From the NCBI RefSeq assembly GCF_003334355.1, contig NZ_QOWP01000007.1: DNA of 64,000 nt; one strand, given 5' to 3'. The notes beneath the pieces are model-generated. The model worked only from the letters and a program-made list of their open reading frames with translations. It did no database searches and was not told the origin of the DNA. Source of the DNA: Escherichia coli (GTDB lineage: Bacteria > Pseudomonadota > Gammaproteobacteria > Enterobacterales > Enterobacteriaceae). Shown one piece after another: positions 36,892 through 38,180 of this stretch (the stretch's first letter is position 1; every line of letters starts with the position of its first letter). Position numbers and translations under genes: made by a program.

Positions 36892-36925
36892 AGGCGCAAC
36901 CTTCACGGGTTGCGCCTGTATTTTT
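36892..36925 (+). terminator. Intrinsic terminator of mdtK (overlaps 3' end of ydhQ)
   Basis: AGGCGCAACC/GGTTGCGCCT stem followed by TATTTTT. Confidence 0.75.
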
Positions 36926-38180
36926 ACGCAGGCTGGAGCGTTGCGCCAATCCCGTCTTCGTCTGGCTGTAGTTTCAGTGCGTTACACAGAGTTTGCCGAC
37001 TGGCATCTGTTATCTCAACGTGTATATCACCGGTAACTTCCCCTTTCACATTGATGAAGTCAGGTGAAATTTCTTTCGCACTGGTTTGCAGGCAAATCGC
37101 TCCCTCTCCGCGCAGGCGTTTCACTTTCAGTTGCACATGCGTTGCCGCACCAGTGATCAGCCACAGTTTTCCGCCATTCAGATTGATGTTACCAACACTG
37201 AAAGTGACACTGTCACCTTTTACCGTACTGCCGTCGAGAATCAACACACCGCCCTGCTGTACAGTAATCGTTGATTGTTGCAGCTCTGCGCCATAACCAA
37301 TAATCATTGAAGCGCCGTCCAGTAATGCAACACTCCCGGTCAGTTCAACCGGTGCGCGATCTTCCTCTACGACAAAATTTTCGTCCGCGCTGGTGGGTGA
37401 CAACAGGATCACTGTTCCACCTTGTATTACCGCATTTTCCAGCGTACCGGCATGCACTTCAGCCCGACCACCCACATTCACGGACAGGTTTTGCGTCTTA
37501 CCGGAACTGTAGAGCTGAAGGCCATCCGTCCCCAGACGATAAATGGATCCATTCTCAACAATAGTGTCAGAGTCTTCACCACCGAGATTATTCATGGTGC
37601 CACCAGCAAGCAACGTATCACTGGCTTTCCCGGCCAGCATAAAAACGCCGCCCTGATTAATCTCACAATTGCTGGCTTCCCCACCTGGATACACCAACAA
37701 TTCACCACCTTCATCTACCACGACCGCTGAGGTTGTCCCATTAACCAACAGGCCGCCCTCTTGATCGAGAATGATTTTTTCCGCGCGATGGCCTTCCAGT
37801 ACACGCAGGTTACCGCCATTTTCCAGCAACAAACCGCAGGCATAACCTTTATCAACGCTGAATTCACCTTCGGGATGGCGGCCATTAACCGTAGCGAGCG
37901 TAGAGAGACTAATTGCGCCTCCCTCGGACTGAACAATATCTGTGGCAATGGCACCGTCGCTGACCGATAGCGTGCCATTGTTACCGTACTGTGTGCATTT
38001 GGCGATCCCACCGGTTGCCACTTTCAACCAGCCAGCCCCCGTGACCACGGTATTTTCGGCTCTTCCGCCAGCTTCAACAATCAACTCGCCTTCAGTAAGT
38101 TGCGTCGCGCCAATGACCTCGCCGGTCTTAACAATTTGCACATTCCCGTCGCTCATCAAGTTTTTCGCATCAGATCCCAT
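36924..38180 (-). CDS. ydhQ: Autotransporter-passenger-like (pertactin/beta-helix-like) protein YdhQ, 418 aa, no barrel domain
   Basis: Track ORF; Gly/Asn/Thr-rich degenerate repeats typical of adhesin passenger domains. Confidence 0.85.
   Translation of the reverse strand: MGSDAKNLMSDGNVQIVKTGEVIGATQLTEGELIVEAGGRAENTVVTGAGWLKVATGGIAKCTQYGNNGTLSVSDGAIATDIVQSEGGAISLSTLATVNGRHPEGEFSVDKGYACGLLLENGGNLRVLEGHRAEKIILDQEGGLLVNGTTSAVVVDEGGELLVYPGGEASNCEINQGGVFMLAGKASDTLLAGGTMNNLGGEDSDTIVENGSIYRLGTDGLQLYSSGKTQNLSVNVGGRAEVHAGTLENAVIQGGTVILLSPTSADENFVVEEDRAPVELTGSVALLDGASMIIGYGAELQQSTITVQQGGVLILDGSTVKGDSVTFSVGNINLNGGKLWLITGAATHVQLKVKRLRGEGAICLQTSAKEISPDFINVKGEVTGDIHVEITDASRQTLCNALKLQPDEDGIGATLQPA

Follow-up and report, generated by a model that had tools for sequence, protein, structure and literature searches.

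In a 64,000-nucleotide stretch of Escherichia coli DNA (RefSeq assembly GCF_003334355.1, contig NZ_QOWP01000007.1; hereafter "the window"), the gene ydhQ encodes a protein of 418 residues that looks like the secreted part, or passenger, of an autotransporter adhesin, and it lies next to the tRNA gene pair valV-valW. What is a passenger that carries no export modules of its own, and why is it still there? A first-pass annotation of the window, made from the sequence alone, had taken the product for either a remnant or a protein secreted by another route, and had noted that tRNA genes are common sites of integration. Our analysis confirms that YdhQ is a passenger-only relative of the Ag43/AIDA-type autotransporters, shows that a longer gene model with a leader or a barrel is impossible, and finds the gene under clear purifying selection throughout the genus Escherichia, so that it is not a decaying pseudogene. 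We think it probable, on balance, that YdhQ is a cytoplasmic, selected, non-secreted derivative of a passenger. Databases and papers already record the gene, how it is annotated and that it has no leader; what we add is the genus-wide measure of purifying selection, the proof that neither leader nor barrel can be recovered, and the mapping of the gain of the gene to the 5' side of valV.

The kinship of the protein can be read from its composition, its repeats and its predicted fold. The open reading frame, labeled "ydhQ: AIDA repeat-containing protein" by RefSeq, is rich in Gly (15.3%), Thr (7.9%) and Asn (5.5%) and has a degenerate periodicity of about 18 residues (lags 17-19, 36-37 and 54; z = 3.4-4.0 versus shuffles). 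Pfam recognizes AIDA repeats in it, the best at residues 99-159 (E = 2e-22) with more copies within residues 31-193, and a Pertactin domain at residues 329-403 that matches model positions 1-78 of 121 (E = 4e-5) and looks truncated. The gene and its parts are placed as follows.

36924..38180, minus strand: ydhQ coding sequence, 418 amino acids from an ATG start, passenger-only with AIDA repeats (from the open reading frame list)
37602..38090, minus strand: residues 31-193, AIDA-type repeats (~19 residues each) with homology to the Ag43 alpha-domain (from Pfam)
36972..37196, minus strand: N-terminal two thirds of a pertactin-like (autochaperone) domain, residues 329-403 (from Pfam Pertactin)

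Among the NCBIfam models, the equivalog NF007409/PRK09945 aligns with residues 1-418 of 418 at 942.9 bits (cut-off 830), NF033177 (Ag43; E = 4e-26) and NF033176 (AIDA-I; E = 4.5e-15) match more weakly, and TIGR04415, the heptosyltransferase-target repeat, reaches 43.1 bits against a cut-off of 30. A phmmer search of the PDB aligned YdhQ 26-214 with Ag43 202-393 (4kh3; E = 1e-23 to 1e-26) and also matched TibA. The AlphaFold2 model, built on 24 sequences, is entirely beta, with a mean predicted local distance difference test score (pLDDT) of 92.1 and a predicted template modeling score (pTM) of 0.89, and long beta-hairpins cap its helix. Its best PDB matches in Foldseek are Ag43 variants, TibA and pertactin; in AFDB, YdhQ itself comes first, followed by YpjA/EhaD and Ag43. 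The passenger-like character that the first-pass annotation had read from this Gly/Asn/Thr-rich frame is thus borne out by periodicity, repeats, homology and modeled fold alike.

The comparison with characterized relatives shows both how close the likeness is and where it stops. Ag43 (Flu; PDB 4kh3, 7ko9, 7koh) has the same right-handed beta-helix (Foldseek probability 1.0), and the two proteins, at ~22-38% identity, both carry the hairpin motif "NG..(E/L)G.FSV..G.A..LLLENGG.L.VL.GH.A". Ag43, unlike YdhQ, is equipped with a signal peptide, a full autochaperone, a linker and a 12-stranded barrel; it is phase-variable and sits exposed on the surface. YdhQ, which has no export modules, stays in the cytosol when expressed as encoded. 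AIDA-I and TibA (PDB 4q1q) share the AIDA-type strand-loop-strand repeats of ~19 residues (PF16168; TIGR04415) and the beta-helix fold, but they are secreted, and heptosylated by the adjacently encoded Aah/TibC, for which ydhQ has no counterpart as a neighbor. Two cryptic autotransporter adhesins of E. coli K-12, YpjA/EhaD and YcgV, are members of that passenger family, rank among the best AFDB matches, and have been grouped with ydhQ as Ag43 homologues (PMC13101318, PMC9110714); YpjA (1526 amino acids) and YcgV (955 amino acids) keep the C-terminal barrel, whereas YdhQ, at 418, does not have one. The likeness to the autochaperone region of pertactin (P.69; PDB 1dab) is confined to those first 78 of the 121 Pertactin positions, and the domain is cut short in YdhQ, where a tail of residues 397-418 takes the place of the remainder.

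YdhQ is an acidic protein of ~43 kDa (isoelectric point 4.45, net charge -26). Four parts of it are invariant or nearly so in eight aligned Escherichia-type sequences, namely the N-terminus (MGSDAKNL), the hairpin motif at 99-135, an acidic loop at 261-280 and the C-terminal tail (KLQPD.D.IGA.L). The loop, SPTSADENFVVEEDRAPVEL (~37341-37400, minus strand), is almost invariant over eight Escherichia-type lineages, and its residues 265-272 form the sole internal stretch of the model with pLDDT <50; we regard it as a candidate interaction site. PADLOC, which covers anti-phage defense systems, gave no match for YdhQ, and its PHROG matches are to function-unassigned families only.

How, then, could such a protein leave the cell? 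Its N-terminus, MGSDAKNLMSDGNVQIVKTGEVIG, is net acidic and has no hydrophobic core (the highest Kyte-Doolittle mean over 11 residues in the first 60 amino acids is 1.25), and SignalP 6.0 has been reported as negative for a signal peptide (PMC13101318). Around it the genes run punC-cfa-ribE-mdtK, ydhQ (on the opposite strand) and valV-valW-ydhR-ydhS-ydhT, and the immediate flanks hold the following elements.

35510..36883, plus strand: mdtK, a MATE efflux gene, the conserved left neighbor and synteny anchor (open reading frame and annotation)
36892..36917, no single strand: two-way terminator hairpin common to the convergent mdtK and ydhQ, found on both strands by a terminator scan
38184-38186, minus strand: in-frame TAA two codons 5' of the ydhQ ATG (direct sequence reading)
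38187-38192, minus strand: AAGGAA ribosome-binding site just 5' of that TAA (direct reading, in the order TAA ATC ATG)
38193..38375, no strand assigned: Escherichia-specific DNA 5' of ydhQ, the presumed location of the ydhQ promoter (alignment with outgroup spacers)
38376..38487, plus strand: conserved valV-valW promoter region, with TTGCCA-17-TAATAT at 38433-38461 (promoter scan)
38488-38564, plus strand: valV, tRNA-Val(GAC), transcribed away from ydhQ (ARAGORN and Rfam tRNA model)
38569-38645, plus strand: valW, tRNA-Val(GAC), transcribed away from ydhQ (ARAGORN and Rfam tRNA model)

Because the TAA stands only two codons 5' of the ATG, the frame cannot be extended upstream, and because the 40 bp between the stop codons of ydhQ and mdtK are occupied by the two-way terminator hairpin, there is no room for a barrel downstream. 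The ydhQ-valV spacer (38181-38487, 307 bp) has stops in all frames, and the stop-to-stop frame of ydhQ is 419 codons long in seven Escherichia lineages. Neither Pfam nor NCBIfam matched an autotransporter barrel (PF03797 / TIGR01414) in YdhQ; translated searches of the whole window for barrel domains found nothing, so that it holds no trans-acting candidate; and searches of the ydhQ flanks for coding relics of a leader or barrel, queried with the segments that flank 171 homologue stretches N- and C-terminally, returned none above chance. Full-length homologues (e.g., P0103, P0174, P0114, P0173) show where the protein ends relative to its kin. In these the YdhQ profile stops near position 394-396, where the barrel model TIGR01414 has just begun, and the barrel then runs on for ~280-430 residues past the end of the profile. 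In YdhQ its own 22-residue tail (397-418), lineage-specific and conserved, replaces the rest of the Pertactin domain, the linker and the barrel. The lack of a signal peptide and of a barrel, both stated in the first-pass annotation, is therefore real, and the flanking sequence excludes a corrected model that would supply them. With neither leader nor barrel, YdhQ lacks the means to cross either membrane by itself, and as it fails two features that define type Va secretion, neither databases nor papers should treat it as an autotransporter or adhesin in the mechanistic sense.

If the gene had lost its use together with its ends, its sequence should tell. The mdtK-valV interval (1604 bp, 100% identical to that of E. 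coli CP53 and 99.1% to those of K-12 derivatives) is present with ydhQ in all 5426 of 5426 complete E. coli genomes, in 5425 of them at a query coverage of at least 80%, and the mdtK-ydhQ-valV junction is invariant within the species. The lone low-coverage genome, AR_0013, carries an ISEcp1 insertion that splits ydhQ (L002 3675-6592). When six more E. coli genomes were sampled over the range of identity, the 418-codon gene was intact in five; in the sixth, ST2747, it is annotated as frameshifted, owing to the loss of 1 nt from a run of G close to gene nucleotide 498 (L021 341-1596), which may be a sequencing or assembly error in this 2014 assembly.

Junctions beyond E. coli were fetched by exact-protein look-ups of YdhQ orthologues and of MdtK. 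Orthologues of 418 amino acids in the same mdtK-ydhQ-valVW context occur in E. albertii (80% identity), E. marmotae (83%) and Escherichia sp. E4742 (87%), and further syntenic ones of the same length in an E. ruysiae-type lineage (90%) and in two others. An orthologue of 419 amino acids with 71% identity also adjoins the valV promoter and mdtK. MdtK of that lineage is 94.5% identical to the E. coli protein, between the named Escherichia species (96.7-98%) and other genera (89-92%), and this intermediate value assigns the 419-residue orthologue to a deeper Escherichia-like lineage. A scan of genome contigs with a YdhQ peptide pattern returned one locus, in Escherichia sp. MOD1-EC7003.

The ratio of non-synonymous to synonymous substitution rates (dN/dS), computed by the method of Nei and Gojobori, is 0.07-0.14 for ydhQ over 21 between-species pairs with dS up to 1.05, and 0.12 within E. 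coli. The same ratio is 0.065-0.18 for the neighbors ydhR and ydhS and 0.013-0.037 for mdtK, ribE and cfa. The AIDA/Ag43-like half (residues 1-215; 0.06-0.10) is the most constrained part of the protein, and the pertactin-like part (residues 329-403; 0.16-0.38) the least. Indels are absent across seven Escherichia lineages, in which the gene has exactly 418 codons at dS up to 1.05, and in a neutral simulation that modeled substitutions only, none of 2000 runs preserved an open frame once substitutions reached 0.25 per site. Since a low dN/dS reflects constraint at the level of amino acids, it does not come from selection on the DNA alone. The word "remnant" in the first-pass annotation therefore holds for the origin of the gene, as a truncated derivative, and fails for its state: this is not a gene in decay.

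Where the protein resides is best judged from published experiments. YdhQ fusions without an added signal peptide gave cytoplasmic fluorescence and no external agarase activity (PMC13101318), so that the other half of the earlier suggestion, secretion by another route, finds no support for the protein in its native form. YdhQ has been quantified in whole-cell proteomics, with a 5.5-fold change with vanillin (PMC6561319), has been copurified with EF-Tu (PMC2672614), and is among 17 unannotated RNA-interacting proteins recovered by orthogonal organic phase separation (OOPS; bioRxiv 10.1101/2023.07.03.547468).

The reading that we consider the most probable, that of a cytoplasmic passenger derivative under selection, would run as follows. 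The product of ydhQ is a piece of a type Va passenger of the Ag43/AIDA-I type, cut inside the autochaperone region. On the Escherichia stem the gene would have been inserted, without an integrase, in the gap between mdtK's terminator and valV's promoter, and would have been inherited vertically since. Its product would be a soluble acidic beta-solenoid made in the cytoplasm, a location taken from the literature, and the purifying selection since the gain would mark its repurposing for some cellular role. We infer, as to both the binding and its partners, that YdhQ may serve as an intracellular binding scaffold rather than as a surface adhesin, acting through conserved faces and loops of the beta-helix, chiefly the invariant hairpin motif at 99-135 and the invariant acidic loop at 261-280. 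A more specific proposal, which we regard as unlikely, makes YdhQ the first case on record of an autotransporter passenger put to use inside the cell, as a cytoplasmic acidic beta-solenoid with a new role in translation- or RNA-associated complexes; it would fit the EF-Tu copurification, the recovery in the RNA interactome and perhaps the fixed place of the gene beside the valVW operon. The other novel reading has the passenger, itself barrel-less, exported in trans.

Several observations weigh against a selected cytoplasmic role. The non-synonymous evolution of ydhQ is 4-8 times faster than that of its housekeeping neighbors, and disrupted natural alleles exist (the ISEcp1 insertion in AR_0013 and the 1-nt frameshift in ST2747, the latter possibly an assembly error). 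Positively selected sites, typical of surface proteins, have been reported in ydhQ (PMC9110714). The gene has no known phenotype, and the Keio delta-ydhQ strain is a routine neutral control or integration site (PMC6962156; GMT preprint). A compilation of COG3468 proteins from extracellular-vesicle proteomes includes YdhQ (PMC10458587). In cysteine content and charge, where adaptation to the cytoplasm might show, YdhQ does not differ significantly from secreted homologues: the net charge of -6.2 per 100 amino acids lies at the 12th percentile of homologous secreted passenger segments, and the cysteine content of 1.2%, against a median of 0.41% in these segments, is equaled or exceeded by 14% of them. 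As for a role linked to translation or RNA, both the copurification with EF-Tu and the recovery by OOPS come from high-throughput work, which is prone to false positives, and a net charge of -26 makes direct RNA binding unlikely. Finally, a 2026 study scored YdhQ-anchor constructs with an added signal peptide as "displayed" (PMC13101318); it never addressed the missing barrel, and its assays are compatible with leakage.

That last study brings up the alternative that survives best, and that we nevertheless think unlikely: YdhQ would still be a surface or extracellular adhesin, exported by a non-classical route such as the barrel of another autotransporter or BAM/TAM acting in trans, outer-membrane vesicles, or lysis followed by Ag43-like "Velcro" binding. 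The signal-peptide fusions did give more external agarase activity than anchor-less constructs, which the authors read as surface display (PMC13101318), and the vesicle-proteome list (PMC10458587), the reported positively selected sites (PMC9110714) and the homology to the self-associating passengers Ag43 and TibA point the same way. Native YdhQ, however, has no signal peptide, and its leaderless fusions were cytosolic by microscopy; a barrel is absent from the protein, its flanks and the window; and no partner gene is conserved with ydhQ, which has only a terminator on one side and a divergent tRNA promoter on the other. The display assays themselves, which used agarase halos and a membrane-permeant fluorogen, are compatible with periplasmic leakage. 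Roux and colleagues, in 2005, are also said to have seen no adhesion upon induction of ydhQ.

Somewhat less probable still is that ydhQ is a functionless remnant, kept by chance or for the sake of its DNA, which might, for example, space or insulate mdtK from the strong promoter of valV. Such a view would account for the loss of both ends of a complete autotransporter, for the use of the knockout as a neutral control and for the viability of strains with insertion-disrupted and frameshifted alleles. It is at odds with the dN/dS of 0.07-0.14, with the 418 codons retained in seven lineages and the failure of the frame to survive any of the 2000 neutral runs, with the conservation of the N-terminus and the C-terminal tail alike, and with the detection of YdhQ in proteomes.

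The origin of the gene bears on the remaining question, whether it came as cargo of an island at the tRNA genes. In Salmonella enterica, Enterobacter and Leclercia, mdtK is followed after ~150 bp by valV-valW, with no YdhQ-like sequence between them. When the mdtK-valV spacers of Escherichia were aligned with those of these three genera, only the last ~110 bp before valV, including TTGCCA-17-TAATAT, were shared, which leaves an Escherichia-specific stretch at ~36884-38375 (roughly 1.45 kb) that contains the terminator, ydhQ and ~195 bp upstream of it. A single gain of ydhQ on the Escherichia stem is the more parsimonious account, as the alternative of repeated precise losses is less so. The mdtK terminator hairpin reads AGGCGCAACC...GGTTGCGCCT in Escherichia versus TAGCCGCC...GGCGGCTA in Salmonella, Enterobacter and Leclercia; judged by sequence, the Escherichia form may have arrived with the insertion of ydhQ or been remodeled by it.

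As for the donor, an exhaustive HMMER scan over 1.84 billion representative proteins returned a single YdhQ cluster. Outside it, the non-fragment relatives are at most 38% identical and are long autotransporters of 600-6000 amino acids in which YdhQ matches several stretches of the passenger. With relatives no closer than this, the donor, an Ag43/AIDA-family autotransporter, is no longer identifiable, and none of flu, ypjA and ycgV was recently copied to give ydhQ. Outside the cluster, the nearest relative is a protein of 1534 amino acids with 38% identity (P0026; L017 1848-13933), and its contig, which also carries a second autotransporter with an extended signal peptide region (ESPR) leader and NEL/LRR effector-like genes, has the look of a virulence-type cluster. 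Barrel-less relatives of 380-500 amino acids were considered as a wider class and rejected, as they look like fragments or pieces of pseudogenes; some begin with an Ag43 leader and break off partway through the passenger.

It is very unlikely that ydhQ is the cargo of a small islet integrated at valV/valW. tRNA-targeting integrases insert at the 3' end of the tRNA, and ydhQ sits on the opposite side, 5' of valV and upstream of that gene's promoter. No integrase or other mobility gene was found among the open reading frames and annotated features between mdtK and ydhS, searches for direct repeats of the valV/valW 3' ends returned only the two tRNA genes, and searches for terminal inverted repeats around the insert gave only short chance-level pairs; the first-pass annotation, too, had seen neither integrase nor flanking direct repeat beside these tRNA genes. 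A 12-nt exact copy of the valW 3' end, CGGACGCACCAG, occurs at 35172-35183, 3.4 kb to the left of the tRNAs; it lies inside ribE, where an attachment (att) site is implausible given that this is a conserved riboflavin synthase gene, and was rejected as a chance match. The GC content of ydhQ, 0.50-0.525, is like that of its flanks. Presence of ydhQ varies only between genera, its junction stays constant throughout Escherichia, and the universal conservation in E. coli, with its invariant junction, refutes the idea of a tRNA island for this gene. What speaks for an islet is that the ~1.45-kb segment is missing from three other enterobacterial genera, that valV/valW is a known island site, home to Salmonella pathogenicity islands (SPI) 2 and 22 (PMC3158058), and that even Escherichia species differ from one another in the genes that follow valW.

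That variable ground, however, flanks the tRNA pair on its far side. Right of valW (38646 onward), Salmonella carries the SPI-2 type III secretion genes (ssaU and onward), S. bongori has the type VI island SPI-22 at the valW 3' side (PMC3158058), and Enterobacter has type VI secretion fragments there. The same side also differs within Escherichia, where E. albertii is without ydhS and E. marmotae without the ydhT-ydhV operon. The true island hotspot is the 3' side of valW, adjacent to but separate from the ydhQ insert, so that the earlier hint of tRNA-associated integration is sound for valW and misplaced for ydhQ.

The chance that the gene model is simply wrong, with a frameshift or a mis-called start hiding a full autotransporter, is negligible: nothing was found in its favor, the frame is closed by the in-frame stop upstream and by the 40 bp of terminator and then mdtK downstream, the 307-bp upstream spacer with its stops is unlike the N-terminal flanks of homologues, and the 418-codon model is identical in seven lineages.

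A few observations concern the surroundings. A promoter scan of the minus strand found no consensus sigma-70 promoter for ydhQ, and an Rfam scan of the ydhQ-valV spacer gave no match within the spacer itself. An FlhDC binding site has been placed in that spacer by genomic systematic evolution of ligands by exponential enrichment (SELEX; PMC9962212). Just beyond the tRNA genes, RF02194 ("HPnc0260", a bacterial antisense RNA) matches 38607-38769 on the minus strand from end to end of the model, with 110 bits (gathering threshold 59), antisense to the 3' half of valW and the valW-ydhR spacer; as the family name is an odd one for an E. coli locus, the match may be a real antisense transcript or an artifact of how the family was seeded. 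Farther on, ydhT (40800-41612, minus strand) shows short degenerate repeats by eye (..ARIATAG..AQIASMG..VRIGSVG..SHIGSSG..SRISSAG..), a pattern that suggests a second repeat or solenoid-like protein near ydhQ.

These results matter mainly for how ydhQ is annotated and used. It serves in many labs as a "neutral" deletion or integration site, and it is repeatedly cited as an autotransporter adhesin, a biofilm factor or a surface-display anchor; it is probably neither an adhesin nor truly neutral, and saying so is a useful correction for annotation and experimental design. While ydhQ reveals no new kind of system, it is a clean example of a fragment of a secreted, virulence-type protein kept for a different cellular use.

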